DNA of 64,000 nt from an uncultured Fodinibius sp. (GCA_913057775.1 CAJXOG010000010.1:40523-104522), one strand, 5' to 3'. Positions 34,531 through 64,000 are shown, counted from the first letter of the stretch. Numbers and translations: made by a program. The notes: generated by a model from the letters alone, not told the origin.

Positions 34531-34546
34531 CTCAAAAAAATATTTA

Positions 34547-35560: not shown

Positions 35561-35577
35561 TCTTCAGTTTAAGTAAG

Positions 35578-49040: not shown

Positions 49041-50300
49041 TTAATTGGTTAGTTTGTTAAGGATCTCCTCAAAAGTATATGAATCTTCTTTGCTGGCTTT
49101 CATATTCCGAAGCGTGAATTTGCCCTCAGCCAGTTCATTGCCGCCGACTATAATTACATGACGAGCATTTTCGCGGTCGGCATCTTTCATCTGTGCTTTG
49201 ATCGAGCGACCAATGTAATCCATAGATGCCGAGAGTCCGGCTTTGCGAAGTTTGGGAAGATGCTTAAGTCCCCAGTTACGGGCTTCTTCACCGAGCGTAA
49301 CGATATATACATCCAGCATTTCTTCTTCAACAAGGTCGATTCCCAGCTCTTCGCAGGCAATGAACAATCGTTCCATACCGGCTGCAAATCCCACAGCTGG
49401 AGTATGCTGTCCGCCAATTTCTTCGATCAACAGATCATAACGTCCGCCGCCGCCAAGCGCATCTTGCGCCCCCAAATCGGGACTGATAAGCTCGAAAGCA
49501 GTACGCGTATAATAATCGAGTCCGCGTACCAAATATGGATCTTCTTCGAAAGGGATTTCCAGTTCTTTCAGTAACTCTTTGACTCGGGCGTAGTGAGCCT
49601 CAGTTTCCTTTGTAAGAAAATCAGTTATAACTGGTGCATCATCAATAAAAGGCTGATCCTCTTCCTCTTTGGAATCCAGAATTCGCAGGGAATTTTTTTC
49701 AAAGCGTTCATTGGAAATGTCGCTCATATCCTCGAGATGAGGACGAAAATAATCTTTCAGTGCTTCGGTATAAGCTTTTCGACTTTCGGGATCACCAACA
49801 GAGTTAATCTTCAGGGAGGTATTGCTGATGCCAACGCGATCATAAATCGACATCATCAGTGCGATAATATCCACGTCGGCAGCGGGATCGTCGGCGCCAA
49901 TAATTTCGGCCCCAAACTGATGGAACTGTCGCTGGCGACCTTTTTGTGGTTTTTCGGCGCGGAACATCGGTCCGATGTAGTATAGATTTTGCGTTCCGCC
50001 GCGCTGCTCTAAGTGATGTTCTACAAAAGCGCGCGCCACAGGTGCGGTACACTCGGGACGCAATACATACTGATCATCACCTCTTTCAAAGGCGAACATT
50101 TCCTTGGAGACGATATCAGTTAGTTGCCCCACGCCGCGAGCGATGAGCTCGGTTTGCTCCATAATGGGTGTACGGATCTCCTCGAAGTTAAACTTTTTGG
50201 CCTCTTCGTGAATAATGCGTTCCAGTGCTTGCCATTTTTTTACTTCGCCGGGCAGGATGTCCACCATCCCCACATGCGTGCTAAAGGTCTGTTGCGCCAT
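49041..50300 (-). CDS. hisS: histidine--tRNA ligase
   Basis: 419 aa. It has class II motifs and HisRS blocks: LRPECTAPVARA, YYIGPMFRAEKPQKGRQRQFHQFG, GGGRYD and GFAAGMERL. Confidence 0.9.
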   Translation of the reverse strand: MAQQTFSTHVGMVDILPGEVKKWQALERIIHEEAKKFNFEEIRTPIMEQTELIARGVGQLTDIVSKEMFAFERGDDQYVLRPECTAPVARAFVEHHLEQRGGTQNLYYIGPMFRAEKPQKGRQRQFHQFGAEIIGADDPAADVDIIALMMSIYDRVGISNTSLKINSVGDPESRKAYTEALKDYFRPHLEDMSDISNERFEKNSLRILDSKEEEDQPFIDDAPVITDFLTKETEAHYARVKELLKELEIPFEEDPYLVRGLDYYTRTAFELISPDLGAQDALGGGGRYDLLIEEIGGQHTPAVGFAAGMERLFIACEELGIDLVEEEMLDVYIVTLGEEARNWGLKHLPKLRKAGLSASMDYIGRSIKAQMKDADRENARHVIIVGGNELAEGKFTLRNMKASKEDSYTFEEILNKLTN

Positions 50301-50416
50301 GAATATAAATCAGTTCAGTTCTAAAAATAATTCGCTCCCAAGATAAGAGTCTCCCTGTAGAAATTCTCACCCAATTTCGTAAGGAGTGCGAGCAAAAAAG
50401 GTCTTACTTATAGTTA

Positions 50417-50426
50417 GCCACAGATC
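50417..50426 (+). repeat. left copy of 10-bp direct repeat GCCACAGATC flanking the GxxExxY gene
   Basis: This is an exact copy of the sequence at 50836..50845. A further CACAGAT lies at 50429..50435. Confidence 0.5.
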
Positions 50427-50444
50427 AACACAGATTATAGACTG

Positions 50445-50822
50445 ATGAATACTTATAGACATCACAAGTTGACCAGAAAAATCATCAAGGCATATTATGA
50501 AGTTTATAATGAGCTTGGCACAGGTTTCTTAGAGTCCATTTATGAGAAAGCAATATTTATAGTTCTTATAGATGATTGTGGTCTTGAAGTCGTTGCTCAA
50601 GAATCAATTGAAGTTCGATTTAGAAATAGGATGATAGGAAAATATCAGGCAGATTTGTTAATAGAAAACAAAGTGATAGTAGAATTAAAAGCTGTTTCTA
50701 AATTGATACCAGAGCATAAAGCACAATTGATCAACTATTTAAAAGCAACGGGTATTGAGATAGGGCTCTTGATGAATTTCGGTGATCAACCAGAATTTAA
50801 GCGCTTTATTTTTAATAAATGA
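50445..50822 (+). CDS. GxxExxY protein (PD-(D/E)XK nuclease superfamily)
   Basis: 125 aa. It has the eponymous motif GTGFLESIYEKA and a downstream D..(E)LK core (ADLLIENKVIVELKA). The size is typical of the family. Confidence 0.8.
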   Translation: MNTYRHHKLTRKIIKAYYEVYNELGTGFLESIYEKAIFIVLIDDCGLEVVAQESIEVRFRNRMIGKYQADLLIENKVIVELKAVSKLIPEHKAQLINYLKATGIEIGLLMNFGDQPEFKRFIFNK

Positions 50823-50835
50823 ATGATGGTATTTG

Positions 50836-50845
50836 GCCACAGATC
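50836..50845 (+). repeat. right copy of 10-bp direct repeat GCCACAGATC
   Basis: This is an exact copy of 50417..50426. It is followed by inverted copies of the core (ATCTGT at 50866 and ATCTGTG at 50876). Confidence 0.5.
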
Positions 50846-50901
50846 TTACATTGAGATTTTTAGAAATCTGTTTTTATCTGTGTAAATTAGTGACTATCAA
50901 A

Positions 50902-51888
50902 TTACATTCCGGTTAATACAATTTTGCCGGTGTTTTTATTGTTTTGCATACGCTGGTGGGCTTGTTCAGTATCCGTCCAGTCAAACGTAGAATCAATAAC
51001 AGGAGAGAGCGTTCCGGTTCTAAACAGGGAAAGTGCTTTCTGAGCAAAATCTTTAGTGAGATCAATTTTATATTGCTCGGATCGATTGCGTAACGTTGAT
51101 CCCATAATAGATAATCGCTTGCGCAAAATAGGTATTAAGCTCAGCTCTTCGATTTTGTGTCCGCCCAGAAACGACAAATAAACGACTCGACCATCCATGG
51201 CCATTACCTCCATGTTTTTATGCCAGTAGGGCTTGCCGATGAAGTCTACAACCACATCTACCGAATCGGGACCAACGTCACTGATGATCTCTTCAGCGTA
51301 ATTTTGCTGTTTATAATTATAGGCAAAGTTTGCTCCCAACTCTTTTGCCGCATCGAGTTTGTGCTGTTTGCCGGCCGTAGCAATGATTTGGGCATCATAT
51401 AAGTGATGGGCCAGCTGAATAGCGGAAGTGCCCACGCCACTGCCTGCAGCATGAATGAGCACGGTTTCTTTTTCTTGCAGTTTTCCGAGCCAATCTAGCG
51501 CCTGAAAAGCCGTCAAAAAGGTTTCGGGAATAGCTGCGGCTTTGTCAAAAGGTAGGTTCTCCGGAATTTCCATCGCCATATCTTCGTGAATGGTGCAGTA
51601 TTCCGCATATCCACCGCCGGCCAGTAATCCAAAGACACGATCGCCTAGGTTCCACTTAGTGACTTCGTTCCCCACTTTTTCTACTATTCCAGCCATCTCA
51701 AGTCCCAGAATTTCACTTGCGCCTTTAGGAGGAGGATAGTTTCCCGTTCGCTGAAGCAGATCGGCCCGGTTGAGAGCAGTTGCTTTAATTTTTACTCGGA
51801 TGGTCTTCGCCGAAAATTCGGGATCGGGGACTGTGCCAATTTCAAGAGTATTTTGTTCATCATTGTTGATAACCTGTATTGCTTGCAT
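50902..51888 (-). CDS. NAD(P)H:quinone oxidoreductase, zinc-independent MDR family (Qor/PIG3-like)
   Basis: 328 aa. It has GNYPPPKGASEILGLEMAGIV and the nucleotide-binding motif IHAAGSGVGTSAIQLA. Confidence 0.8.
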   Translation of the reverse strand: MQAIQVINNDEQNTLEIGTVPDPEFSAKTIRVKIKATALNRADLLQRTGNYPPPKGASEILGLEMAGIVEKVGNEVTKWNLGDRVFGLLAGGGYAEYCTIHEDMAMEIPENLPFDKAAAIPETFLTAFQALDWLGKLQEKETVLIHAAGSGVGTSAIQLAHHLYDAQIIATAGKQHKLDAAKELGANFAYNYKQQNYAEEIISDVGPDSVDVVVDFIGKPYWHKNMEVMAMDGRVVYLSFLGGHKIEELSLIPILRKRLSIMGSTLRNRSEQYKIDLTKDFAQKALSLFRTGTLSPVIDSTFDWTDTEQAHQRMQNNKNTGKIVLTGM

Positions 51889-51904
51889 GGTAGTAGAAGA
51901 TCGT

Positions 51905-53401
51905 TTAATTCTTTTGAGATAAAAGTGCTTTTGCTTGATTGAGAATGCTTTGAATAAGCTGATTTAATTCATCAGAAATATTCATGGCCCACAAGGGAAG
52001 AACGTAAGTGATAGTAACCACAACAGAACGCAAAAGTATATCTAAATAGTTGTTGGCGGGATGCGGTATGAGGTAAGCGACTGTAAGTGAGAGAATCCCG
52101 ATAAAGACTATCAGTAACATTTTCCATTGGAAAGGTTGCATGGAAAAGCGCAACCATACATAGAATAATTTGAGTGTATTATAAATGATGATTGCTGATG
52201 CGGTGCCAATAGCGGCACCGACAATTCCATATATAGGAATTAACAGATAATTTAAGATTACTGTTATGATAATGAGCAGTACTGTTGAATAGAAGTCAAA
52301 TCGGTAGTGCTTGGAATTAAGGATTATTGCTCCGTTAATGCCGGTTACCATGTCAAACATATTGGCCATGCCGATAATGATAATAACCATTGCACCTCCC
52401 GAGTATTCCTTGGGCAGTATGTCCATAAGGTTATACAGGCTGGCTATGACCCCGCAGAATAGTAATCCGCCGGCTAAAACTTGGTTTAAGGAAGATCGTT
52501 TATAGATCTGTTCGATAAGATCAAAGTTGTGCTCCTTGAAAGCATCTGCAATGACCGGAGATGATATTTTATAGATGGACTGTCGGGTAATAGTAATGGC
52601 TGATCCGATATAAAATGCGATGGCATAAATTCCGGTATCATCCAGACCAGCGAGGGAGCTGAGCATGATAATATCGATATTGGAGACAATAATGGAAGCA
52701 ATACCTCCGAAAAATGAAAACAGGCTGTAGTTCATCATCTTTTGAATAAGCGACCTGTTCAAGAAATAAAAATCGGGAATGAGCGATACGTTGGAGGTCC
52801 AGAGCATATAGACAAAAAGAATAAAAAGAACGATGCCATAGTTTAGGACAAACAGAATGACAAACTGATTGAACGTAAGCCACCCCATAAAGTAGATGAT
52901 GAGTAATAAGGCCGTTAAAACACGGACAACAACATCCATCAGGAATGAAGATAGGACGGTGTCGTAGAGTGCCTGCACAAATTTGGTAATGACATGGAAG
53001 AAAAGAATGGAGAAAGCAAGCGGCAATATAAACCAGTAATAGTCGAGAAGCAGCTCTGAACGTTCTACAAAATACTGGGTGATTTGGGGGCGGAAGATAT
53101 AGAGTCCCAATCCGAGCAGTAGAAAACCAATCAACGGAACAATAAGAGATAAAAATAAGAAACCGTGATGATTCTCTTCTTTATCTCTAAAAAAGGGAAA
53201 GAATCGTATGATGGTATTTTTGATTCCCAGGCTGCCCAGCTGGGTCGAAACCATGGCCAGTGACAACAGTACGCGGGTAAGCCCATACTGCTCGGGAGTG
53301 AGAATATTGGGATACATCCAGATAGTAACCACAAATCCCAGGGCTACGCCAATATAGGAGATGATCGTGTTTTGAATGCTTTGCCTGAATATGACTCCCA
53401 A
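51905..53401 (-). CDS. MOP-superfamily polysaccharide/oligosaccharide flippase (Wzx-like)
   Basis: 498 aa with a TTG start. About 14 TM helices run throughout, and the N-terminus (FRQSIQNTIISYIGVALGFV) is typical of polysaccharide biosynthesis proteins. It is the last gene of the glycan locus. Confidence 0.7.
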   Translation of the reverse strand: MGVIFRQSIQNTIISYIGVALGFVVTIWMYPNILTPEQYGLTRVLLSLAMVSTQLGSLGIKNTIIRFFPFFRDKEENHHGFLFLSLIVPLIGFLLLGLGLYIFRPQITQYFVERSELLLDYYWFILPLAFSILFFHVITKFVQALYDTVLSSFLMDVVVRVLTALLLIIYFMGWLTFNQFVILFVLNYGIVLFILFVYMLWTSNVSLIPDFYFLNRSLIQKMMNYSLFSFFGGIASIIVSNIDIIMLSSLAGLDDTGIYAIAFYIGSAITITRQSIYKISSPVIADAFKEHNFDLIEQIYKRSSLNQVLAGGLLFCGVIASLYNLMDILPKEYSGGAMVIIIIGMANMFDMVTGINGAIILNSKHYRFDFYSTVLLIIITVILNYLLIPIYGIVGAAIGTASAIIIYNTLKLFYVWLRFSMQPFQWKMLLIVFIGILSLTVAYLIPHPANNYLDILLRSVVVTITYVLPLWAMNISDELNQLIQSILNQAKALLSQKN

Positions 53402-53481
53402 AACGGTTGTTCGTTATTTAAAAAGGTGTGAGAACTTACTAATATTTCTGATTGGTTATCATAGAAGTTGTAAAGAAGATA

Positions 53482-54447
53482 TCACAATCCGATTTTACGT
53501 TTTATAATCTTTTTAAAAGCGGGTAAGGTGTACCGTTTATCATGGATAGAAAGTTTATTGAGATAGCTCAATTTTCCGCTTAGCATAATTTTAAATGCTG
53601 TATATATTTCCTCGAGCGCTATTCGGATATGAATGCTATAGTTGTATTTATAATCTGAATAGTCATTGAATTCAAAAAGCATTTTTTTTAATGATTGGAG
53701 GTATTTATCCAGGTGTTGTGCTTGGTTGCTCAAATTACTCCAAGAGTTAGTATGTCCGCTCCGGTAGCAGCTCATTATATCCGGTAGGGCTCCGATTTTA
53801 CCGTGCTCGATAGCCAGCAGATACAGTGAATAATCGCCGACATAGGCATCCACAAACCAGTCTGGCATTTTTGTCAGTATATCGCTCCGAAAAAAGACAC
53901 TGTTTGTAGCACAAAATCCACCTCCTTTTTCAATAATTTTTTCTGGTTTGATTATTGATTGAGTCTTTATATTTGGAAAGATAGATTTCTGTAGCCCTTT
54001 TTCATCAATTATATAAGCGTTATGCAGTGACATAGAAATATCTACACTTGATTCCATGAAGTCATATTGTTTTTGCAATTTCCGGGAATCAATCCAATAG
54101 TCATCACCGTCGCAGAAAGCTATATATTTACCGCGGGCTACCTTTAGGGTTTCCAAAAAGTTATGGCGACCGGTAGGGTTACCATTAATATAGCGCACAT
54201 TTTCTCTCGAGCGCAGAAATAGCCGAATGTTCTCCGGATGTTGTTCTGCTAGCTGCTTGCAGATTTCTCGTGTTCCATCGTAGGATTCATCTTCCCCAAT
54301 AATAATTTCTATTGGGAAGTTCGTCGTTTGATCGAGGGCACCTTTCACGCATTTTTTGATGTATGCAGCATGTTGATAAGTGGTAATACAGACTGATACC
54401 TGCGGTTCTATTTCATTTATCGCTTTTTCTGTTCCAAGGTATTCCAT
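53482..54447 (-). CDS. glycosyltransferase family 2
   Basis: 321 aa. It has VSVCITTYQHAAYIKKCVKGALDQT...IIIGEDESYDGT and the DxD-type motif FCDGDDYW. Its start lies 31 nt inside the upstream sulfotransferase ORF. Confidence 0.8.
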   Translation of the reverse strand: MEYLGTEKAINEIEPQVSVCITTYQHAAYIKKCVKGALDQTTNFPIEIIIGEDESYDGTREICKQLAEQHPENIRLFLRSRENVRYINGNPTGRHNFLETLKVARGKYIAFCDGDDYWIDSRKLQKQYDFMESSVDISMSLHNAYIIDEKGLQKSIFPNIKTQSIIKPEKIIEKGGGFCATNSVFFRSDILTKMPDWFVDAYVGDYSLYLLAIEHGKIGALPDIMSCYRSGHTNSWSNLSNQAQHLDKYLQSLKKMLFEFNDYSDYKYNYSIHIRIALEEIYTAFKIMLSGKLSYLNKLSIHDKRYTLPAFKKIIKRKIGL

Positions 54448-55238
54448 CTAAAATGTTTTTCAATTTCAAGAAATCGGTCATCCGTTTTGATCTCATTTAT
54501 GATAACGGGATTAAGCTGGCTTGTCCATTCAAATCCGGTTTTATTTTTCCGGTACACATCATAGGGATCATCTGATGTGGAAGCGGTGCTTTCTTCTAAA
54601 AAAGCCTCCGTCTGTTCATTCAGGGCAAGACCTGCGAAATCAAAAGCTTCCCTGGTGTTTTTTAAAGGGTTATCAACTAGTTTTTCATAGCATAGCAGGT
54701 GAAAGCGATTTGGAAAGTTTTTCTGAAGACGTAGAAACATTCGAGTGGCATCCAGCCAACGTTCATACCCGTAGAAATCGTGTTCAGAAGTATTCTTCTT
54801 ATGAGCGTACCGCCACTCCTCTAATATATCCCATTGTTCATCGAATTCTTTTGGAGCATTATGCCAGGAATGAATGGTTCCGCAGGGATGCCGTACAATG
54901 CCAACAACCTTTATTTTTGATTGTTTTAAAAGATTGTGAATGATATCGAGGTATCGGACTTCTTTCCATACCAGATGAGTACGCTGCGTTTTGGAAAATG
55001 TTGGCGTTTGGTTGCCGCTTATATTCTGTCTTTGACAAACAAAATCGTCATTTGTTTGCAATAGCTTTTCATGAAAATGGGTAATCTCTTTTTGACTGCT
55101 CTCGGCAGTGAGACTCTCATCAAACGAATAGGCAAAAATCGGTTGATAGCGGTAAACTACATTTGGAGAGCTGTTGAAAATTTGGCCGAGCCAGGAAGTT
55201 CCCGATCGAGGTACGCCGAAAATTGCTACGTTCTGCAT
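54417..55238 (-). CDS. PAPS-dependent sulfotransferase family protein
   Basis: 273 aa with no signal peptide. The 5'-PSB-type loop FGVPRSGTSW starts at residue 7, and the 3'-PB-like segment is GIVRHPCGTIHS. Confidence 0.75.
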   Translation of the reverse strand: MQNVAIFGVPRSGTSWLGQIFNSSPNVVYRYQPIFAYSFDESLTAESSQKEITHFHEKLLQTNDDFVCQRQNISGNQTPTFSKTQRTHLVWKEVRYLDIIHNLLKQSKIKVVGIVRHPCGTIHSWHNAPKEFDEQWDILEEWRYAHKKNTSEHDFYGYERWLDATRMFLRLQKNFPNRFHLLCYEKLVDNPLKNTREAFDFAGLALNEQTEAFLEESTASTSDDPYDVYRKNKTGFEWTSQLNPVIINEIKTDDRFLEIEKHFRWNTLEQKKR

Positions 55239-55239
55239 A

Positions 55240-55941
55240 TCATACCAAGTTATAGGCTGTTAAATGATCATCGCGAATTTTCTCCGGAGCATTAAACATC
55301 ATAACATCAATAATTGATAACCCTGGTACAAAATCGTTATCGAACTGTTCGTACTCTTTTAGGGATGGCTCAATGAATTGTAGTGTGACGCCATCGTTTA
55401 GGAATTCCTCTTTGTTGTAAAGCTCTTTTCCGCCCGTGGGATTTATATAAGTTGTCATTTTCTCTTTTTTACAGATGTCGATAAGTCGTTCTGCTTTCCC
55501 AAGGTCGGTGTTATTGTATTCTTCGGAACTGACTTTAAATGTGGTATCCATGTTCAGATAACTGCTGGTTTGGCGGACACTTTGCATTGCCAAATCGGCA
55601 ATATAGCTACTTTCTGTTTGTAACACATTTTCAACGATAGGAAATATATCATCAAAAAAGGGAGCATTGCTATAAGAGAATTTGATCTTCCGTAGAAGTT
55701 TGCCCCGCTTTTTGTCTGTCATTGCATGCTTGACCTCGTTGATGAGCTTGTTCTGTGAGGCATCTTTGCATGGAATGGTAAAGTAGTTCTCCTCTCCATT
55801 TATAAGTACTTTATTTCTATTGATCCATCCCCGCGTAATAAAATTTACATCATTATAGAAGACAAAGGTATCAACCTCAGATATTAGCTGAAAATATCCT
55901 ATGTAGGGAAAAAGATATGGCTGGACAATTCCGATACTCAT
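55240..55941 (-). CDS. WbqC family protein
   Basis: 233 aa. The N-terminus IGIVQPYLFPYIGYFQLI is characteristic of WbqC-like proteins, and the gene lies in a polysaccharide-locus context. Confidence 0.7.
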   Translation of the reverse strand: MSIGIVQPYLFPYIGYFQLISEVDTFVFYNDVNFITRGWINRNKVLINGEENYFTIPCKDASQNKLINEVKHAMTDKKRGKLLRKIKFSYSNAPFFDDIFPIVENVLQTESSYIADLAMQSVRQTSSYLNMDTTFKVSSEEYNNTDLGKAERLIDICKKEKMTTYINPTGGKELYNKEEFLNDGVTLQFIEPSLKEYEQFDNDFVPGLSIIDVMMFNAPEKIRDDHLTAYNLV

Positions 55942-55942
55942 G

Positions 55943-56926
55943 TTATAAACTACTTATAAGTTCGCGCTTCAATTTCTGTCGGTCTCGGAGAAGATCCGAG
56001 GTTTTCTTATTTGATCGTATTTTTTGCTTCAGAAGCTCTTTAACCTTATTGAAATATTGATAATTGTTTTTTCCGATAGCAGGAGACCATTGTGCATCAG
56101 TTTCTAATTGATAGTCAAGTGCTTCCATCTGCTGTTTACAAACAGATTCAATAATCAAGGTTTGTTTTTGAGAAAGAATATCTACGTAATTCTTTTTGTT
56201 TGATGAGTCAATGGGTTTGTTCAGGTTCTTCCACAGCACATTCCGATTTGCTTCCTCATTATTCTGTTCATTTTGGAAGCACTGCTCGTCGACATTCATG
56301 TCCAGATATTCTAACAGTGACGTCAGAGTCTGTTCGGTATCCGTAATAAGCTCTTCATAACTTAGCTGATGATACGACAGGTTATAGGCACGATGCAATG
56401 CGAAACACTTTTTTTGATCTTCTTTCCACGATTGAGCTGCTTCATAGGCGGTAAAATAAAGTATATTATTTTTTAGCCAAGAGCTCACGACATCGCGTGG
56501 ATCACGGTGGAGAAAGAGCCAGTCTATGCCAGACAAGCTGGCCATTACAAGTCCGCTGTAATTAAACAGATGTCTTTCTTTGCATACATATCCTGCTTTG
56601 TTATCCTCCCGGGCTTTTGTAGCGTATAAGGCATCCACAGTTTCAATAAAATTTTGGGGAGCAAATTCAGAATAGATATCTTCCGCCGATATCTTAAGAT
56701 TCCAGTCACTGAATGGGTGATTGGCATATGTTATCAGCTTTGAAATAAGCGAAATGCTGTTTTCCCTTTTTCTGAGGTCTCCAAACTTTTCAATATGAGG
56801 AGTAAAGCTATCAAAAAACTGTGGAGATACCGGTGCTGAAAGATTAGGGTGGTTACCCAGAAGAACGCGCAGCAAGTTGCTGCCAGACCGTTCTGAATAA
56901 AGGATAAATACTCTTTTGAGGTCCAT
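55943..56926 (-). CDS. PAPS-dependent sulfotransferase family protein
   Basis: 327 aa. The 5'-PSB-like segment is ILYSERSGSNLL and the classical 3'-PB segment is LHRDPRDVVSSW. Confidence 0.75.
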   Translation of the reverse strand: MDLKRVFILYSERSGSNLLRVLLGNHPNLSAPVSPQFFDSFTPHIEKFGDLRKRENSISLISKLITYANHPFSDWNLKISAEDIYSEFAPQNFIETVDALYATKAREDNKAGYVCKERHLFNYSGLVMASLSGIDWLFLHRDPRDVVSSWLKNNILYFTAYEAAQSWKEDQKKCFALHRAYNLSYHQLSYEELITDTEQTLTSLLEYLDMNVDEQCFQNEQNNEEANRNVLWKNLNKPIDSSNKKNYVDILSQKQTLIIESVCKQQMEALDYQLETDAQWSPAIGKNNYQYFNKVKELLKQKIRSNKKTSDLLRDRQKLKRELISSL

Positions 56927-56929
56927 AGT

Positions 56930-58012
56930 TTAAACGCTTTTTATGATCTTACATATTTTGCCAATTGTCTTTTCAGAAAGCTCATGATAAAAGGGTAGAC
57001 ATAAAATCTGTTTCGAAATCCGATTTGCAACAGGTGTAGCATTTTTTCCATCCACGTAATCGAGATCGGAAAGCAAGGGATAGAAGTAACGGCGTGTTTG
57101 AATATTTGCTTTGGTTAACCTTGCCTGGACTTTAGTAAGCTGTTCTTCACTGTTGAACAACACAGGGTAATAGGAAAAGTTGTACTCTGCGTGGGATTGT
57201 ATGGAAGGTTTGCTAACGTCAACATCCTTCAAATAGTGGTCATAAAATTTGCTTAGTTCTTTGCGTTGAGCAAGGACCGAATCAATATACCGGAGATTAA
57301 CCAGTCCCATAGCCGCATGCAGCTCAGAATTTTTACCGTTGATGCCTACGCCGGTAAAGTTATTTAGCCCATCGTGGCCAAAATTCCGCATAAGGTTTAT
57401 TTTTTGTCGCAAGTCGGGATTATCAGTCACAATTGCTCCCCCTTCTACCGTGTGGAAAAGCTTTGTGGCGTGAAAACTGCATGTACTGATATCTCCGAAG
57501 TTAAAGATGGACTGTCCCTTGTATTTTGTTCCAAAACAGTGGGCCGCATCGTAAATAACTTTAAGTCCATGGCGGTCTGCGATGGCTTGTATACTTTCAA
57601 TATCACAAGGATTCCCATAAACATGAGTGGCAATAATAGCTGATGTTTGCGGAGTAATCGCTTCTTCAATTTTCTGCGGATCTAGGTTGAATGTATTCGG
57701 ATCGATATCAACAAAAACGGGAGTGTAATTTTCCCAAACAATGCTGCTTGTGGTTGCTACATATGAAAAAGGTGTTGTGATGATTTCGCCTTGCAGGTCC
57801 AAGGCTTTCATGGCAATTTGAAGTGCAATAGTACCATTGCTAACTAAACTGAGTTCTTCAACACCGAGATAGTTCATCAGCTTACCTTCCAACTCCTGTA
57901 CCAAAGGGCCGTTATTCGTAAGCCAGTTGCGATCCCAAATATCTGCGAGGAATGATTCGTATTCCTCACGCGGAGGTAAAAAAGGTTGTGTGACAGGTAT
58001 CTTATCTTCCAT
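56930..58012 (-). CDS. DegT/DnrJ/EryC1/StrS family sugar aminotransferase (PLP-dependent)
   Basis: 360 aa. It has the N-terminal PFLPPREEYE...GPLVQELE and the PLP-lysine context SFHATKLF, and aligns by eye to nucleotide-sugar 3-/4-aminotransferases. Confidence 0.85.
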   Translation of the reverse strand: MEDKIPVTQPFLPPREEYESFLADIWDRNWLTNNGPLVQELEGKLMNYLGVEELSLVSNGTIALQIAMKALDLQGEIITTPFSYVATTSSIVWENYTPVFVDIDPNTFNLDPQKIEEAITPQTSAIIATHVYGNPCDIESIQAIADRHGLKVIYDAAHCFGTKYKGQSIFNFGDISTCSFHATKLFHTVEGGAIVTDNPDLRQKINLMRNFGHDGLNNFTGVGINGKNSELHAAMGLVNLRYIDSVLAQRKELSKFYDHYLKDVDVSKPSIQSHAEYNFSYYPVLFNSEEQLTKVQARLTKANIQTRRYFYPLLSDLDYVDGKNATPVANRISKQILCLPFYHELSEKTIGKICKIIKSV

Positions 58013-58057
58013 TGAGTACGTTTTTTCGACAAGTCATTTTATAATAAAAGATGCTCA

Positions 58058-58807
58058 TCAGGATTTGTTAGAATGCTTGTGATAATCGTTATCAACGTTG
58101 ACCTCTAAAAAGTCGCCCAGCTTTTTCCACTTATCCGGGTCCTCAAGTTGTGTAGTAAATAGCCTTTCAGGGTTTGAGTTTTCAAAAAAAGTGATGACTT
58201 CTTTGTTATAATCCTCATAAACCTTTGTATAGTGCTTCCTTTTCCCTTTTAGGCTCATAAGGTTATCGCTTTTGTTAAGCGTGGGATGAAAGTCATCGTC
58301 ATCTTCCAGTCGATTGTAAAATTCCGGTAATCGATTATACACTTGACAGTGGCGAAAAGTATTTCCCGGGGTTTTTCCATCAGAATGTCTCAACATTGAA
58401 TCGAACCATTCCTCACTATCCCTTTGCAATAAAATAAATTTACTATTTGGAAACCGGTTAAACAGTTTTTTATACATATCGGGATGATACCACGGTGAAT
58501 CTTCAAAGGCATTATATGCTTGAAAAGCGGTAGATTTAAAAATAGCCTCATCGTTGCCTGTGGAGTAAAGATACGGCCAGTTATAATAATCTGAAACAGT
58601 CCATCCGGCTACGGAATAGCCGTGATCAGCCAAGAAGTCACCCGTTGAAGTTGTTCCTGTTCGCTGCATGGAGATGCAGAAAACCCGGTCTTTTGAAGGT
58701 TTTAACAGTTTGTTGAGTGCTCTTCTTGCAAATATGTTTACTCCTGTAGGAAAATAATCTGCTAGCTTCTCTATCATAAAATATTCATTGCGGGGAAAAA
58801 CAACCAT
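58058..58807 (-). CDS. sulfotransferase family protein (Sulfotransfer_4-like)
   Basis: 249 aa. The P-loop-like segment is FCISMQRTGTTSTGDFLADHGY, followed later by LLQRDSEEWFDS. An in-frame Met at codon 11 is an alternative start. Confidence 0.6.
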   Translation of the reverse strand: MVVFPRNEYFMIEKLADYFPTGVNIFARRALNKLLKPSKDRVFCISMQRTGTTSTGDFLADHGYSVAGWTVSDYYNWPYLYSTGNDEAIFKSTAFQAYNAFEDSPWYHPDMYKKLFNRFPNSKFILLQRDSEEWFDSMLRHSDGKTPGNTFRHCQVYNRLPEFYNRLEDDDDFHPTLNKSDNLMSLKGKRKHYTKVYEDYNKEVITFFENSNPERLFTTQLEDPDKWKKLGDFLEVNVDNDYHKHSNKS

Positions 58808-58838
58808 ATGTAAGAATTAGTAGTAATCCCCACTTTCA

Positions 58839-59639
58839 TTAGAACGAATAAGATGGAAATAACTTGAATATTAAGGCTTCTTTCTCTTTAATCAAGTCGA
58901 TATTATCCTGCGAATAGTATTTCCTGTAAGAAAAATCATCACGGCTGGTATTTACTTTGTTATGGTCGTAGATTACCTGAAGTTTTTCTTCGGGCCATCC
59001 AAACTTTTTTAGATACTGAAAAAGATCTTCACGAAGTTTTTCTTGATAGAGGAAATCGGCATCGTAAAGATGATGATTTTCCAGTTCATCAATACTATCT
59101 ATTGAGGATAGTAACTCTAAATAATTCTTTCCGAAGAGTTTGATATAGTAAAGGCTGTAAATACCGATATCCAGCGTTATATCATTTTTTTGTTTGGTGT
59201 TTTCAAGATTGTAATTCAGCACCAAATCAAGATATTCAGAAAAGTTAAGATCAGGAAAATTGGGAAATATCTGTTTGAGCCTTTCTTCTTTTAAAACCGG
59301 ATTCCTTTTCCACCAGGCAAATTTATATTGCGACACATACCGGTCAAATGGGTTTCGTATCGTGCTTACTATAGGTTTTTGCCGATGCTTTTTTGGGATT
59401 TCGTCACACCCTTGGTGCTGTGTCTTAATTTTTTCTCCCGTGTAGGCCAGTGCTTTTGACATGTATTTTTTGGAATAGTTCGTGCGTTCCCTATCAAGGA
59501 GATAATAAAAGTAGTCTGATATTTTCTTCTCTTCGGTTTTATTAGATCTGCCATTATAGATTTTTTTTAAGCACTGGGTGACAAATGATCCGGCATTCTT
59601 GGGAAAATGAATAAAAACAAAGTCGTTTGTTAAAATCAT
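58839..59639 (-). CDS. sulfotransferase family 2-like protein
   Basis: 266 aa. FVFIHFPKNAGSFV resembles the HIPKTGGT motif and IRNPFDRYVSQY resembles the RNPxDRxxS motif of Sulfotransfer_2-type enzymes. Confidence 0.65.
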   Translation of the reverse strand: MILTNDFVFIHFPKNAGSFVTQCLKKIYNGRSNKTEEKKISDYFYYLLDRERTNYSKKYMSKALAYTGEKIKTQHQGCDEIPKKHRQKPIVSTIRNPFDRYVSQYKFAWWKRNPVLKEERLKQIFPNFPDLNFSEYLDLVLNYNLENTKQKNDITLDIGIYSLYYIKLFGKNYLELLSSIDSIDELENHHLYDADFLYQEKLREDLFQYLKKFGWPEEKLQVIYDHNKVNTSRDDFSYRKYYSQDNIDLIKEKEALIFKLFPSYSF

Positions 59640-59685
59640 TGGCAGGTAAATTGTTATAAATCTGAACCGACAAATTGGAATAAAT

Positions 59686-60606
59686 TTATTGGGTAACCGA
59701 AAGGTAGCCTTCTATAATCCATTTGCGAAATTTGATAAGCATTAAAGCCTTTGGGAGTTGAAAAGCTAGCGTGTAGGGTAGAAATAGTCCCAGCGAAATG
59801 ATCATTTTGAAAAATTCGCTGGCACTTTTGGTGAACTTATCTGCTATGGTTTTGTCTTGCAGTTGTAATGCAATACTCTGGCCTAATCCAATGGCTTGTC
59901 TTTTTATATACTCCTTGGTAAGCCGCTGCTTATCAACCCGATGATACAGAGTTGCCTTGGGTACGTAATATATATCAGTGTTTGCTTTTTTCAGGCGTTG
60001 GAAAAATTCTTTTTCTTCGCTGGCTTTTAATTGGTTTCCCTTTCGGCCAAGCTCCGTATCAAAAAAACCGTACTGATCAAAAATGGAACGCTTAAATGCC
60101 ATATTTCCGCCAAAGGGATATTTCTGTTGGTTGTATTTTTTGATCGAATTTCCCAAATCGTGGTGTCCCAGTAAGGGTAGCAGAAAGTGAGACATCCAAT
60201 CGGGACGCGGATCATCAAATTGAACCTCAATTTTTCCTCCGGCACATTTTGCATTGGGATGGGTATCAAAGAAATAAAGCCAGCTATTAATAAAGTCAAT
60301 ATCGGTTGAGATGTCATCATCGAGAAAAGTGATGATCGGATTTTTAGCCTCTTTGATGCCCCGGTTACGCGCAAATGAAAGCCCCTGCTTCGGTTCTTTT
60401 ATGTATTGGATCTGGTGGTTGGGATAGTTATCAATAAAGTTGCGAACAATAGTCGGCGTTTTATCTGTTGAATTATTGTCAACAATCAAAAGTTCAAAAC
60501 GATTGGGATCGGCTTCATTTTTGAGCAGAGAATGAAGGGTGTCCTGTAGATATTGTGCCCGGTTATAGGTACATATCACAAAAGAAATGCCGGACGTTTT
60601 TGCCAT
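59686..60606 (-). CDS. glycosyltransferase family 2 with C-terminal membrane anchor
   Basis: The start was chosen at MAKTSGISFVICTYNR (60606), which is 4 nt after the YfhO-like stop. It has LLIVDNNSTDKT, the DxD motif FLDDDI and a hydrophobic C-terminal helix (MIISLGLFLPYTLAF). Confidence 0.8.
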   Translation of the reverse strand: MAKTSGISFVICTYNRAQYLQDTLHSLLKNEADPNRFELLIVDNNSTDKTPTIVRNFIDNYPNHQIQYIKEPKQGLSFARNRGIKEAKNPIITFLDDDISTDIDFINSWLYFFDTHPNAKCAGGKIEVQFDDPRPDWMSHFLLPLLGHHDLGNSIKKYNQQKYPFGGNMAFKRSIFDQYGFFDTELGRKGNQLKASEEKEFFQRLKKANTDIYYVPKATLYHRVDKQRLTKEYIKRQAIGLGQSIALQLQDKTIADKFTKSASEFFKMIISLGLFLPYTLAFQLPKALMLIKFRKWIIEGYLSVTQ

Positions 60607-60610
60607 GATT

Positions 60611-63100
60611 TTAAGCTTGACCCTTTTTCCTAAAGGATTTGACAACAACCGCAATCCCCAGAATGTATATTACAATATGCCCCGCCCAGGCAATGCGTGC
60701 GCCCCAGATATTTGATGTGGGTTCGAATATTAATCTCACAGTATGTTCACCGGCCGGAACCTCCAATCCGCGCAGCACAAAATTTGTCTTGTATATATTA
60801 GCCGGTTCCTCGTCAATGGTCGCCTTCCATCCAACGGGATAGTATATTTCGCTTAATACCAAAAATTGGTTTTTTTCGGATGAAGTGTTGAGCGTAATTT
60901 CGTTCGGTTTATAACTTTCGATAGTAACCTGAGCTGTAGTATCAACGGATGAGCTGACCGTATCCTCTGTTTCTACAATAGCTGATATGGAGGGATTAAA
61001 GTCAGCGGAAGGTTTCATCCGATTAACAGCCTGTTGAGGAGAATCAACGGTAACAACAGTATCCACAAAAAAGGCTTTTGGAAGCACATCATCGTTGCGG
61101 TATACCCGTTGGTTATTTTGACTGAATACCTCTGTATATCCCCCGAAAGGAAGTTGCTGCTGGATAGTGAGATACTTTGTATTCAGCATGTCCAAGACAG
61201 CGTGATTAAATCCGGTTTGATTGTCCATTAATAAATGGTCGATAAGATCCTGATAATGGGCCAGCTTTGCCCCCGAATATCCGCCAATGGTTGGATAAAA
61301 ATATGAGGGAATAGCATTGTTAAATGGGTTGCGATTTAAAGCAAAGGTGCGATAGGGATAACCCTCACTGGAATTAATATTTTGCATGACATATTTGTCG
61401 GCGGGTGTTTGCTGCCGTTGGATCATTTGCTCAGCTTCAAGTGTATCCGAAGCCATCTGATCTTCGTTAACATAGCGGCTGTCAACGCTGAGCATATCGT
61501 AGGCGGTAAGAGCCAGCAAGCCAATAAGCAGGTATCCTTTGCTTACCTTTCGTTTTACAAATCCAACAATAAGTCCACTGGCAAGTAACGCTAAAATAAG
61601 ATAACGGGTAGAATCACTGCTGGCCATCTCTTTGCGATCGGGTTTTAATCGCGTGTTAATAAAGTTTTGTACCCGCTGCTGTACTTGTGGATTATCAGGC
61701 GATACATTGTTCTGTTGGGCTACTTGTTGAGCATATTGCTGGAATTCGCCCGGCTTTTCAAAAGAGAGCAAGGTGTTGCTGCCGAAGGCGAAAATCACGC
61801 CAAGTCCAATAGCGAGACCCAGCGGTGTATATAATTCTTTTATAGATCTCTGTTTATCTTGGGCTATATCAAACAGAGCCTCAATGCCATATACGGCTAA
61901 CACCGCGAAGCAGAAAACTGTTGCAATGAGCCAGGTTTCGGGGACGCGGAATTTGTCAAAGTAGGGGATATAGTTGAATGCAAATTCATTAAACGCCGGC
62001 AAGTTGTGGCCAAGTGAAAATAGAAGGGTCAGCGAGCCCACGCCAAAGAAAAGGTACTTTATTTTCTTGCGATAGGCGAATAGTCCTACTAAAGCTAGAA
62101 TAAAAGCGATGGCCCCAAAATAGTGCGGACCGCTGGTAAACGATTTTGGTCCCCAGTAGGCTTCGCTGGATGATCCGCCGTATAGTCCCGGAATTATAAG
62201 GGTCAACAATTCTCCAACTCCTTGTGACCAGCTAAAGGCGTATTCTAATGTTAGTCCGCCACTGCTACCTGAAGATGCAAGCGTAGAGCCGCCCCGAGTA
62301 CTGTATTGAGAATATTCGTAAAGTCGCCAGTATAAATCGATGCTGCAGATGATTCCCAGAACGCCAGCTCCAAAGGCGATACCAGTGCGTTGTGCCCAAT
62401 CCCATAGTTCATCTTTCTTGTAAGCCAGCCAACTGTCGTACATCCACCAAAAGCCCAGCAAGTACAAAAAATAATAGGTTATCTGGGGATGGTTGGCCCG
62501 GAGCTGTAGCGTAACCGCCAGAGCAAAAGTAAAAAAAGCCAGCAGTTTTTTCTGTGATCGGGAGATCAGATAATAGCCCACGAACATCCAAGGGACAAAC
62601 GCAAAGGCCATAAACTTGGCATAATGACCGGCCTCGATAACGATGGGCAGATAGGTTGTAAATCCAATGAGAATAGCCCCAATGGTGGCCGAAAACGGGC
62701 GAATCTTCTGGACGACAAAAAAGACGTAGGCACCACTCAATAGTATCCAAAAGAATGCCAGGGGATGGGCTTGTCCGCCAATCCATTTGAAGAAAGAATC
62801 GATGCTGAGTGGTGGAGGAGGATTATGAATGACGGTTGACGGCATTCCCGAAAACATATTGGATGCCCATAGGGGGTGCTCATCGTAAGTGTCGACATGT
62901 TCTATTACAGACTCTGCACCGGCTCGCCACTGCAGAACATCGTTGCCCAGAAATTGCTTGCCGCCAAAAAATATGGCTGAATATAACAAGAGCGGCAGGA
63001 TAAAAAGCACAGCCAGCGAAATCCAATGTTTCTTGTTGGCTGATAGCTTTGAAATAAAATCTTCCTTTAAGGAATGGGTTTGCTCTTTCTTAGAACTCAA
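60611..63100 (-). CDS. YfhO family polytopic membrane protein (putative extracytoplasmic glycosyltransferase)
   Basis: 829 aa with a TTG start. The N-terminal block (GNDVLQWRAGAESVIEHV...HPLWASNMFSGMP) and the many TM helices followed by a large C-terminal soluble region and a final TM match the YfhO-type architecture as I remember it. Confidence 0.65.
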   Translation of the reverse strand: MSSKKEQTHSLKEDFISKLSANKKHWISLAVLFILPLLLYSAIFFGGKQFLGNDVLQWRAGAESVIEHVDTYDEHPLWASNMFSGMPSTVIHNPPPPLSIDSFFKWIGGQAHPLAFFWILLSGAYVFFVVQKIRPFSATIGAILIGFTTYLPIVIEAGHYAKFMAFAFVPWMFVGYYLISRSQKKLLAFFTFALAVTLQLRANHPQITYYFLYLLGFWWMYDSWLAYKKDELWDWAQRTGIAFGAGVLGIICSIDLYWRLYEYSQYSTRGGSTLASSGSSGGLTLEYAFSWSQGVGELLTLIIPGLYGGSSSEAYWGPKSFTSGPHYFGAIAFILALVGLFAYRKKIKYLFFGVGSLTLLFSLGHNLPAFNEFAFNYIPYFDKFRVPETWLIATVFCFAVLAVYGIEALFDIAQDKQRSIKELYTPLGLAIGLGVIFAFGSNTLLSFEKPGEFQQYAQQVAQQNNVSPDNPQVQQRVQNFINTRLKPDRKEMASSDSTRYLILALLASGLIVGFVKRKVSKGYLLIGLLALTAYDMLSVDSRYVNEDQMASDTLEAEQMIQRQQTPADKYVMQNINSSEGYPYRTFALNRNPFNNAIPSYFYPTIGGYSGAKLAHYQDLIDHLLMDNQTGFNHAVLDMLNTKYLTIQQQLPFGGYTEVFSQNNQRVYRNDDVLPKAFFVDTVVTVDSPQQAVNRMKPSADFNPSISAIVETEDTVSSSVDTTAQVTIESYKPNEITLNTSSEKNQFLVLSEIYYPVGWKATIDEEPANIYKTNFVLRGLEVPAGEHTVRLIFEPTSNIWGARIAWAGHIVIYILGIAVVVKSFRKKGQA

Positions 63101-63120
63101 GGCAATGGATTTAATGCAAT

Positions 63121-63154
63121 TTAAAAATATGTCATCCTGAACTTGTTTCAGGAT
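63121..63154 (-). terminator. probable terminator of gatC
   Basis: The minus strand reads ATCCTGAA-acaag-TTCAGGAT (8-bp perfect stem) followed by GACATATTTTTAA. It lies 65 nt downstream of the gatC stop. Confidence 0.5.
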
Positions 63155-63218
63155 CTAAGTTTTAGAGTATATTCAGATGCTGATCATAAATACTCGGGAC
63201 AGCATGACATGGTTAATA

Positions 63219-63506
63219 TCACTCAATAACCCGTGGCACGCGGAAATAATCGGTGTCGGCATCGGGGGCATTTTTAAGCGCATCTTCGTGAGAAAGTGGT
63301 TCTTTTGCTTTGTCATCACGCAGCCGATATTCCAAATCGATGACGTGCTCAAGTGGTTCTACATCAGATGTGTCAAGTTCTTCGAGGGTTTTCATATGGT
63401 CGAGGATCTGATTCATATCGTTAACCAGCGACTCTGTTTCCTCTTCGCTCAGTTGTAATCGAGCCAGATCAGCAACGTAGTTTACGTCCTTTTTTGTTAC
63501 AGACAT
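63219..63506 (-). CDS. gatC: Asp-tRNA(Asn)/Glu-tRNA(Gln) amidotransferase subunit C
   Basis: 95 aa. DVNYVADLARLQLSEEETESLVNDMNQILDHMKTLEELDTSDVEP is a typical GatC sequence. Confidence 0.85.
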   Translation of the reverse strand: MSVTKKDVNYVADLARLQLSEEETESLVNDMNQILDHMKTLEELDTSDVEPLEHVIDLEYRLRDDKAKEPLSHEDALKNAPDADTDYFRVPRVIE

Positions 63507-63668
63507 GTAGTTTAGATTTTAGCAATTATAAATGGCAATTAAGTTAAGAAAACAGCAGCTAAGTTTACAATTCTTTCGAAGCCTTGTGGGAACGATATTT
63601 TATTGTCAACTGCTGTGGATAGTTACTTTAATTATTGGCATTTTACGATTTAAATGAAATAATACAGG

Positions 63669-63953
63669 ATGATAAAGAAGAAAGTTACGATTGTTAATGA
63701 TGCCGGTTTGCATGCTCGACCTGCAGCCGCATTAGTAAAATTAGCATCAAAATTTGAATCCGATTTTTACATCCATTTGTATGGATACAAAGTAAATGGG
63801 AAAAGCATTCTTGGGGTGATGACTCTTGCTGCTGAAAAAGGAGCGGAGCTTGAGTTAGAGCTCGACGGACCTGATGAGAAAGAGGCTACGGAAGCTATTA
63901 CCGAGCTGATTGATGATGGATTTGGTGAAGTTTATGAGGATGAAAATGAGTGA
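63669..63953 (+). CDS. ptsH: HPr family phosphocarrier protein
   Basis: 94 aa. The active-site sequence is GLHARPA (His15 codon 63711..63713), and the Ser46-region sequence is NGKSILGVMTLA. Confidence 0.85.
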   Translation: MIKKKVTIVNDAGLHARPAAALVKLASKFESDFYIHLYGYKVNGKSILGVMTLAAEKGAELELELDGPDEKEATEAITELIDDGFGEVYEDENE

Positions 63954-64000
63954 TCAGGTAGATCATAAAGAGATGTATATTTTTGGGGCTCCTGCATGTC
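63946..64000 (+). CDS. 5' end of a gene overlapping the ptsH stop; possibly PEP-protein phosphotransferase (EI), truncated by the window edge
   Basis: The ATG at 63946 overlaps the ptsH stop (ATGAGTGA). It reads MSDQVDHKEMYIFGAPAC, and GAPAC is reminiscent of the G(I/V)xASPG start of EI. Only 18 codons are visible. Confidence 0.3.
   Translation, partial: MSDQVDHKEMYIFGAPAC

Follow-up and report, generated by a model that had tools for sequence, protein, structure and literature searches.

A ten-gene Fodinibius locus with four distinct sulfotransferases and a probable role in the synthesis of a sulfated surface glycan

A 64,000-nucleotide stretch of DNA from a salt-loving bacterium of the Balneolaceae, an uncultured Fodinibius sp. 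(GCA_913057775.1, CAJXOG010000010.1:40523-104522; called the window throughout) contains a locus of exactly ten co-directional open reading frames (ORFs) on the minus strand, at positions 51905-63100. The product of the locus is very probably a small surface glycan that contains an amino sugar and is heavily sulfated. In transcription order, the ORFs encode a YfhO-type protein, a family 2 glycosyltransferase (GT2a), two sulfotransferases (ST_A and ST_B), a DegT-type aminotransferase, a third sulfotransferase (ST_C), a WbqC-family protein, a fourth sulfotransferase (ST_D), a second family 2 glycosyltransferase (GT2b) and a flippase of the MOP family. The same order had been given in a first-pass annotation of this DNA, and our listing of the region agrees with it. 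The locus consists of a five-gene cassette (ST_C, DegT, WbqC, ST_D and GT2b; window 53482-58012), a second set of genes (GT2a, ST_A and ST_B) and a Balneolaceae assembly pair (YfhO and the MOP flippase). We consider it likely that ST_A to ST_D truly are sulfotransferases for carbohydrates and take part in making a surface glycan that bears sulfate.

The ten genes are real, because they are intact and syntenic in two related metagenome-assembled genomes (MAGs; Balneolaceae, labelled Aliifodinibius) at 81-93% amino acid identity and in the cultured Fodinibius salinus at 64-75%, and because the dN/dS values of all ten genes, calculated against the related MAG L005, were 0.03-0.11, which indicates purifying selection. 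This comparison of synteny had been proposed in the first-pass annotation. A scan of the genome collection gave two close relatives only, and single-protein pattern queries reach near relatives only.

The four sulfotransferases

All eight motifs that the first-pass annotation had quoted for the sulfotransferases were present in the translations. Each protein contains a phosphosulfate-binding (PSB) loop and a 3'-phosphate-binding (3'-PB) segment, namely HFPKNAGS and RNPFDRYVS in ST_A, QRTGTTS and RDSEEWFDS in ST_B, ERSGSNLL and RDPRDVVSS in ST_C, and PRSGTSW and RHPCGTIHS in ST_D. The 3'-PB pattern of a conserved Arg followed by a Ser eight residues on was found in all four. ST_B, ST_C and ST_D clearly passed their Pfam cut-offs and also matched solved structures. 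For instance, ST_B matched schistosome oxamniquine-type sulfotransferases (best E = 6.5e-4), its RDSEEWFDS segment pairing with RDRNDWLTS of 5tiz in the alignment; ST_C matched the CurM/OLS sulfotransferase domains 4gox and 4gbm, and ST_D the SULT1A structures. In addition, R13-S14-G15, R141, P143, D145 and S149 of ST_C were invariant in eight sequences and P10-R11-S12-G13, R116, P118 and S124 of ST_D in six orthologues. The PSB and 3'-PB residues of these two proteins were unchanged in orthologues with an identity as low as 35%. Orthologues of ST_B were found in L004, L005 and L007, and its dN/dS was 0.105.

ST_A was the weakest case, as its Sulfotransfer_2 score was marginal (22.9 bits with a cut-off of 22) and a single-sequence search of solved structures gave no match; its identity became clear when the family profile and the predicted fold were searched. 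When 19 relatives were aligned, K14, the candidate catalytic H75, R95 and S103 were invariant. The profile placed these residues on the PSB-loop Lys, the catalytic His and the 3'-PB Arg and Ser of human SULT1C3, the last two within its RNPKD..S segment. The fold was predicted for ST_A alone among the four. Its AlphaFold 2 (AF2) model had a predicted local distance difference test (pLDDT) score of 90.7, and the top 50 Foldseek matches in the PDB were all sulfotransferases (TM-score about 0.44, probability up to 1.00). The profile searches, which had been recommended in the first-pass annotation, together with the structure matches and, for ST_A, the invariant residues and the fold, support the assignment of all four ORFs as sulfotransferases and not as other P-loop proteins. 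We rejected the idea that ST_A represents a rare, lineage-restricted family: a word-indexed search gave 19 relatives, but an exhaustive HMMER profile search gave 2830 representatives at E<=1e-3. When members of this family were sampled, 7/10 passed the Sulfotransfer_2 cut-off, at 22-32 bits.

Pairwise BLASTP comparisons among the four proteins gave no significant similarity, in line with the earlier description of visibly different subfamilies. Because of this lack of similarity, the four sulfotransferases appear to be separately recruited lineages and not duplicates. Also as described before, none of them has a signal peptide: no transmembrane (TM)-like or signal-like hydrophobic segment was present in them or in the other soluble enzymes of the locus, and the highest 19-residue Kyte-Doolittle mean (KD19) among the sulfotransferases was 1.09. 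Because of this, the sulfotransferases are probably located in the cytoplasm, where 3'-phosphoadenosine 5'-phosphosulfate (PAPS), their presumed donor, would be present.

A non-glycan substrate, such as a lipid, a polyketide-like metabolite or a small phenolic, might be used by some or all of these enzymes, which would then be merely co-located with glycan genes. Small molecules or acyl-ACP are the substrates of the nearest solved relatives of three of them, namely the schistosome oxamniquine sulfotransferase for ST_B, CurM/OLS for ST_C and SULT1 for ST_D. A natural-product-like context was indeed seen for a distant ST_A relative (27% identity, L008:8684-12533; the most distant found by the word-indexed search), which is flanked by a radical SAM enzyme on one side and a short-chain dehydrogenase (SDR) on the other, with a second sulfotransferase next in line. 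However, the sulfotransferase genes are tightly spaced (-31 to +80 nt) with those of the flippase, DegT and the GT2s, the locus contains no genes for the biosynthesis of lipids or polyketides, and ST_C and ST_D keep the company of DegT, WbqC and GT2b in polysaccharide loci of phylogenetically distant bacteria. Moreover, a search of a representative library retrieved P0341 (570 aa), in which a full-length ST_A-like domain (30% identity, E = 2e-34) is naturally fused to a GT2 domain. This fusion ties the ST_A subfamily to glycan synthesis in the manner of a Rosetta stone. We regard a non-glycan substrate as highly improbable.

The cassette and the variable Balneolaceae locus

Via distant ST_C homologues we reached three further loci, in Winogradskyella (L012), Fulvivirga ulvae (L013) and a third genome (L014), in which the five cassette genes stand together in conserved order, with a methyltransferase gene inserted in two of the three. 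The cassette proteins share 35-58% identity with those of the window: 35-40% for ST_C, 54-58% for DegT, 46-50% for WbqC, 35-41% for ST_D and 36-45% for GT2b, the gene of which directly follows that of ST_D in all three. WbqC directly follows DegT in these loci; in the window ST_C stands between them. All three cassettes are located inside classical capsule loci, which encode Wza and a protein of the Wzc type (domains GNVR and AAA_31). The export genes differ, a Wzm/Wzt ABC transporter being present in L012 and L014 and a MOP flippase in L013, and L014 also holds a Bac_transf initiating enzyme. Because the cassette is found in distant capsule loci with different export genes, it is a self-contained module that can be combined with different export routes. 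Most simply, the cassette may make, add and doubly sulfate one amino-sugar residue.

DegT keeps the pyridoxal phosphate (PLP)-binding lysine (SFHATK) and is closest to DesI, both in NCBIfam (271.7 bits, under the equivalog cut-off) and in the PDB (2po3, E = 4e-61); on the ArnB model it reached 153.5 bits with a cut-off of 631. Because of the kept lysine and the closeness to DesI, an amino sugar in the product, as already put forward in the first-pass annotation, is a reasonable prediction. GT2b, which has a DGD motif at residues 113-115 and a further orthologue with 41% identity in L006, a more distant relative, belongs to the cassette and is thus presumed to be the transferase for its sugar. 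In the PDB, GT2b matched 3bcv and chondroitin polymerase, the latter in its C-terminal domain, and the best match of GT2a was the N-terminal domain of the same polymerase. We nevertheless rejected the idea that the two GT2s correspond to the two halves of a chondroitin-type enzyme, as only the generic N-terminal ~100-120 residues (the nucleotide-binding region) align.

For WbqC, a sequence search of solved structures gave no match, and the titles and abstracts found in the literature point to no functional study. In two other Balneolaceae loci (L006:16673-18345 and L011:20687-22455) WbqC adjoins a 327-aa Sulfotransfer_3 protein, so that WbqC is repeatedly paired with sulfotransferases of different lineages. 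These 327-aa proteins were considered as ST_C orthologues and rejected, since they share only 20-22% identity with ST_C, gave no tblastn match and belong to a different Sulfotransfer_3 lineage.

In other Balneolaceae, a fixed frame of gatC-YfhO ... MOP-QOR-hisS (QOR, quinone oxidoreductase) encloses interior genes that vary (Table 1). YfhO is conserved across the family and lies beside gatC in every genome in which that side is visible, and a MOP flippase ends the locus in most Balneolaceae examined. Orthologues of the flippase, a Wzx-like protein with TM-like segments throughout (dN/dS 0.032), were found in L009 and L011 (44-45% identity), and MOP-family flippases also occur in L006 and L010. 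In L006 the cluster is rearranged and YfhO is still contiguous with it, but stands at the opposite end of the cluster and is reversed in orientation. In each of five Balneolaceae architectures, one to four sulfotransferases were encoded within 10 kb of YfhO. Such a pattern is typical of glycan loci that vary in a serotype-like manner while their assembly genes stay constant. The first-pass annotation had overlooked both that YfhO is the conserved GT-C-fold anchor of this variable locus and that the cassette occurs in standard Wza/Wzc loci elsewhere in Bacteroidota.

The occurrence of the cassette in such classical loci, with either a flippase or a Wzm/Wzt ABC transporter, would also fit an ordinary Wzx/Wzy O-antigen or capsule locus in the window, with initiation, polymerase and export encoded elsewhere and YfhO as an unrelated housekeeping neighbour. 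One component of such a pathway, a Wzx-type MOP flippase (Polysacc_synt 51.6 bits), is encoded in the window locus. In Bacteroidota-like genomes it is common for glycan genes to be scattered, and YfhO, besides its constant position next to gatC, has a distinct GC content (0.45 vs 0.345-0.414 across the nine downstream genes). On the other hand, no Wzy, Wza, Wzc or initiating transferase was found within 10 kb in the five Balneolaceae architectures. YfhO of L006 stays attached to a cluster that has been rearranged and inverted relative to it, and a published Pontiella cluster likewise joins yfhO to a sulfotransferase, vioA and a flippase (PMC7356697). An ordinary Wzx/Wzy locus is in our view rather unlikely. 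In the window itself, an initiating phosphoglycosyl transferase, Wzy, Wza/Wzc and a 4,6-dehydratase were found neither in the ten genes nor in the other ORFs scanned, which were all those of at least 150 aa except a SusC-size ORF at 27301-30858. The first-pass annotation had noted these absences in the locus and had concluded that the route is not a standard Wzx/Wzy pathway; the absences stand, while the conclusion drawn from them is weakened in that such genes could lie elsewhere in the genome.

Assembly of the glycan and comparison with known systems

The YfhO protein has TM-like segments at residues 25-519 and 800-824, with a beta-rich soluble domain in between (about 520-797) that is predicted to be extracytoplasmic. 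Its Pfam match (35.1 bits) covers only the C-terminal 84 residues (713-796). A sequence search of solved structures gave no match, and there was no solved YfhO structure for alignment. The AF2 model (pLDDT 72) had AftD, AglB, ArnT, AftA, PglB, STT3 and EmbC as top Foldseek matches, all with the GT-C fold and with low TM-scores (0.23-0.38), and the model thus points to a GT-C fold for the YfhO protein. Such GT-C enzymes act on lipid-linked donors, outside the cytoplasmic membrane. D54 (within GNDVLQWR), Q57 and R59, located just after the first TM segment, were invariant in 24 sequences, in a part of the model with a pLDDT below 50; D54 is a candidate for the acidic residue that enzymes of this class conserve in the first extracytoplasmic loop. 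There are at least 1815 homologues, which carry PF09586 and are named 'YfhO family protein'; the Balneolaceae-type matches listed share 51-90% identity. The dN/dS of YfhO was 0.044. The topology seen here, in which many TM helices are followed by a large extracytoplasmic domain and then by one last helix, is also that described for YfhO of Bacillus subtilis (PMC5836110). That YfhO is the final transferase for the sulfated glycan is a tentative assignment, which we place a little below an even chance. The literature that we found did not name a Bacteroidota O-oligosaccharyltransferase; YfhO as this enzyme would be speculation and is not claimed.

We propose that GT2a and GT2b would build a short glycan on a polyprenyl phosphate carrier at the cytoplasmic face of the membrane, with the initiating enzyme encoded elsewhere. 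The amino-sugar residue would be made by DegT, processed by WbqC and added by GT2b. The four soluble, cytoplasmic PAPS-type sulfotransferases could then place up to four sulfates at several positions of the lipid-linked glycan, ST_C and ST_D acting on the cassette sugar and ST_A and ST_B on or beside the sugar added by GT2a. Subsequently, the MOP flippase would carry the sulfated lipid-linked glycan to the periplasmic face, where the YfhO-type GT-C protein might hand it to an extracytoplasmic acceptor. A protein, lipopolysaccharide (LPS) or a different polymer of the envelope may serve as this acceptor. The cell would thereby gain a strongly anionic surface coat that differs among strains, is suited to saline habitats and helps in escaping phages. 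The data show to which families the enzymes belong, which catalytic motifs and folds they have and how they are conserved, and also how the cassette and the variable locus are organised, while the order of steps, donor type, acceptor, sugar identity, use of PAPS and physiological role are presumed. We consider the whole chain, from carrier assembly and sulfation to flipping by the MOP protein and transfer by YfhO, somewhat more probable than its alternatives taken together.

A simpler use of YfhO would be a three-component system of the CsbB/GtrB-flippase-YfhO (or Arn) type, in which GT2a loads one sugar on undecaprenyl phosphate and this sugar is sulfated, flipped and added by YfhO as a side decoration to a polymer made elsewhere. 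Such a scheme needs no initiating phosphoglycosyl transferase and would agree with the family membership and the GT-C fold of YfhO. The combination of DegT, a GT2, a flippase and a GT-C protein parallels ArnB/C/EF/T, and GT2a starts 4 nt after YfhO, as csbB is found with yfhO in B. subtilis (PMC5836110). The properties of GT2a itself speak against it. GT2a carries DDD at residues 112-114 (ORF numbering), and its best NCBIfam matches were HpsE/EpsD/AglG-like, all under their cut-offs and, like chondroitin polymerase, glycan-elongating GT2s, whereas the ArnC and dolichyl-P-hexose transferase profiles reached only E about 0.006 and the dolichyl-phosphate mannose synthase (DPMS) 5mlz aligned with the N-terminal 100 residues only. 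A single, weakly hydrophobic C-terminal helix (maximum KD19 1.47 at residues 282-300) could be taken in favour of the scheme, but there is no clear C-terminal TM helix pair. Orthologues of GT2a with 54-58% identity are present in F. sediminis and F. saliphilus, whereas tblastn found none in the loci of L006 and L011, both of which do have YfhO. Furthermore, the flippase is a 498-aa MOP protein and not of the small GtrA/ArnEF type, for which the gaps of at most 80 nt leave no room, and a second GT2 and four sulfotransferases exceed the needs of one monosaccharide. The Arn variant has further difficulties: no ArnA- or ArnD-like genes were found in the locus, the GT-C protein belongs to the YfhO and not the ArnT family, and DegT is closer to DesI than to ArnB. 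We therefore regard a three-component system as improbable.

Several observations weigh against the proposed chain that leads to YfhO as the last step. No genes for PAPS synthesis (cysD/N/C) were found among the scanned window ORFs. Characterised YfhO proteins move single sugars from undecaprenyl-phosphate (C55-P) donors onto teichoic acids in Gram-positives, and not oligosaccharides in diderms. YfhO was not found by tblastn in L012-L014, where the cassette works without it, and since gatC is its neighbour in every genome with that side visible, the adjacency of YfhO to the variable genes could be positional and not functional. GT2a is, judging from its profile matches, no clear polyprenyl-phosphate transferase of the GtrB/ArnC/CsbB type. 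As the locus lacks an initiating transferase, the carrier and the first sugar are only putative, and the product is predicted from genes alone. Finally, predicted sigma-70 promoters (35 vs 38 expected) and intrinsic terminators (15 vs 12 expected) in the region 50300-64000, and likewise the Bacteroidetes-type -7 motif TAnnTTTG (67 vs 63 expected), were all at chance level. Because of this, it is the gene spacing that suggests an operon structure.

Sulfotransferase-bearing polysaccharide loci are already known, and the Fodinibius locus is an unusual variant and not a new kind of system. The first-pass annotation had called bacterial sulfated glycoconjugates comparatively rare; its list of examples was short, as sulfated capsules of marine Vibrio and Cobetia and the sulfotransferase-rich O-antigen islands of Salinibacter had already been described. 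The synechan (xss) cluster of Synechocystis PCC 6803 resembles the window locus in that sulfotransferases of distinct subfamilies are encoded among glycosyltransferases and a Wzx-type flippase, in the inferred cytoplasmic sulfation and in its saline habitats (PMC8205485). In contrast, synechan has a proven product and relies on two sulfotransferases for eight glycosyltransferases with Wzy and a polysaccharide co-polymerase (PMC8205485), whereas the window locus, known from genes alone, has four sulfotransferases for two glycosyltransferases, a YfhO-type GT-C protein and an amino-sugar module, with neither Wzy nor a co-polymerase. Because of this difference in the sulfotransferase to glycosyltransferase ratio (4:2 vs 2:8), a very densely sulfated unit is suggested by analogy.

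Also related in gene content is the putative sulfated glycosaminoglycan cluster of Pontiella sulfatireligans F21, with a sulfotransferase, a VioA/DegT-type aminotransferase, yfhO, a TuaB-type MOP flippase and GT2/GT4 enzymes (PMC7356697). This strain makes sulfated, largely N-sulfated polymers, the link between genes and product being unproven (PMC7356697). The cluster differs from the window locus in that it comes from Kiritimatiellota and has one sulfotransferase, many more glycosyltransferases, GtrA and an undecaprenyl-phosphate (Und-P) mannosyltransferase; WbqC is not among the genes in the published figure legend (PMC7356697). The CsbB-YfhO and GtlA-GtlB systems for teichoic acid glycosylation in Firmicutes share a YfhO-family GT-C protein and an adjacent GT2 gene with the window locus (PMC5836110). 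The latter, however, belongs to a diderm host without teichoic acids, its GT2 is not clearly GtrB-like, and it has a MOP flippase, sulfotransferases and the amino-sugar module. The hypervariable O-antigen islands of Salinibacter ruber, a halophile of the Bacteroidota-Rhodothermota-Balneolota group, are likewise variable surface-glycan genes enriched in sulfotransferases and glycosyltransferases, with a presumed role in phage recognition (PMC6060240). They differ in that they are described at the level of COG categories, and the text of that study has no YfhO/MOP frame, cassette or gene-by-gene analysis (PMC6060240). The sulfated capsule of Vibrio sp. KMM 8419, of which the structure is solved, likewise involves sulfotransferases encoded in a marine surface-polysaccharide locus, but this is an 80-gene region with KpsMT-type ABC export, its own second copies of cysD/N/C and three dispersed sulfotransferases, in which a neutral sugar (rhamnose) is sulfated and no amino-sugar cassette is present (PMC11641403). 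A literature search on Balneolaceae sulfotransferases and Fodinibius sulfate assimilation gave nothing relevant.

As defined, the window locus lies outside the Wzx/Wzy, Arn and three-component families, because the defining features tested were not found in it, and inside the sulfotransferase superfamily (four times) and the YfhO/GT-C family. In its most specific form, our proposal is that Balneolaceae assemble envelope glycans by a route not described before, in which a conserved YfhO-type GT-C protein, and not one of the Wzy, WaaL or PglL type, receives a lipid-linked oligosaccharide that carries several sulfates and has been flipped by the MOP protein, and attaches it to proteins, the LPS core or a further polymer of the envelope, and that the cassette specifies a disulfated, possibly N-sulfated amino sugar, which would be the first functional context for the WbqC family. 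In this full form it is a speculative scheme that we consider doubtful.

To our knowledge, few bacterial sulfated glycans have been traced to genes, and we know of almost no bacterial carbohydrate sulfotransferase with a defined acceptor. The compact locus, with four distinct sulfotransferases for two glycosyltransferases and the same genes in the cultured F. salinus, offers a tractable system. The cassette points to one defined sulfated amino-sugar residue spreading among marine and saline Bacteroidota. It would be a ready enzyme set for sulfated, glycosaminoglycan-like sugars and would give the uncharacterised WbqC family a testable role. If YfhO is indeed the final transferase, the role of its family would extend from Gram-positive teichoic-acid decoration to the assembly of diderm envelope glycans. 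Moreover, that the gene content varies while the chromosomal site stays the same suggests a serotype-like diversification of an anionic coat in saline habitats.

Gene layout and other features of the window

The locus is flanked by housekeeping genes, with gatC and HPr upstream and the quinone oxidoreductase and hisS downstream (Table 1). The range of intergenic spacers given in the first-pass annotation, from -31 to about +80 nt, was confirmed, the extremes being the ST_D/GT2b overlap, which is kept in L005 and L007, and the GT2b/MOP gap. Two gene starts were revised. The start of GT2a is most likely the ATG at 60606, used by gene callers and by the orthologues, while the longest ORF begins at TTG 60654; this leaves a gap of +4 nt to YfhO instead of a 44-nt overlap. 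ST_B probably starts at Met11 (239 aa), as its orthologues have 234-239 aa. The inverted repeat between gatC and YfhO may be a candidate gatC terminator and thus the upstream edge of the locus.

Table 1. Features of the sulfotransferase locus in the window and of related loci in other genomes
Feature	Position	Strand	Description
Inverted repeat and T-rich run	63134..63154	-	between gatC (63219-63506, -) and the YfhO start; consensus match only, regional terminator count not above shuffled controls
YfhO	60611..63100	-	829 aa; Pfam YfhO 35.1 bits (cut-off 28.5) and DUF6541
GT2a	59686..60606 (longest ORF to 60654)	-	306 aa; Glycos_transf_2 107.6 bits
ST_A	58839..59639	-	266 aa; Sulfotransfer_2 22.9 bits (cut-off 22)
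ST_B	58058..58807	-	249 aa (longest ORF); Sulfotransfer_4 77 bits (cut-off 22.8)
DegT	56930..58012	-	360 aa; DegT_DnrJ_EryC1 336 bits
ST_C	55943..56926	-	327 aa; Sulfotransfer_3 60.6 bits (cut-off 27)
WbqC	55240..55941	-	233 aa; WbqC 241 bits
ST_D	54417..55238	-	273 aa; Sulfotransfer_1 53.5 bits (cut-off 22), Sulfotransfer_3 49.1 bits
GT2b	53482..54447	-	321 aa; Glycos_transf_2 75.3 bits
MOP flippase	51905..53401	-	498 aa; Polysacc_synt 51.6 bits
Cassette locus, Winogradskyella	L012:10001-15228
Cassette locus, Fulvivirga ulvae	L013:10001-14565
Cassette locus, third genome	L014:10001-15276
F. sediminis (L009), interior			DUF5916, one Sulfotransfer_2, two GT2s, ATP-grasp
F. saliphilus (L010), interior			three sulfotransferases, GT2s, GT4
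Halalkalibaculum (L011), interior			two GT4s, DUF7033, four sulfotransferases, WbqC
L006 (more distant relative)			rearranged: ST_A, DegT, ATP-grasp, methyltransferase-like, GT2, GT1, PIG-L, WbqC, sulfotransferase, GT4; still ends at YfhO

Several other features of the window were noted. Between hisS and the quinone oxidoreductase gene, on the opposite strand, lies a small PD-(D/E)XK (PDDEXK_3) gene (50445-50822, +), which is also found in L001. In the related MAG L005 no more than about 212 nt separate hisS from the quinone oxidoreductase gene, so that the PDDEXK_3 gene is a strain-specific insertion. At 42044-44170 and 44328-46451 (+), tandem paralogues encode an amino-acid permease fused to PTS EIIA_2 and TrkA_C domains, and the pair is also present in L006. 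The region 25400-36951 (+) encodes an extracytoplasmic function (ECF) sigma factor, a FecR anti-sigma factor and SusC/SusD, followed by an NlpC/P60 peptidase with SH3 domains, a class-A-like beta-lactamase-family protein, a DAP_DH_C dehydrogenase and an S13 D-Ala-D-Ala carboxypeptidase. It resembles a polysaccharide utilization locus (PUL) and looks aimed at peptidoglycan peptides, not polysaccharide. Finally, a 1627-aa protein encoded at 9485-14368 (-) has five Lamin-tail domains, Big_5 Ig-like domains and a CHU_C type IX secretion C-terminal signal, and is probably a large secreted or surface-attached cargo of the type IX secretion system (T9SS).

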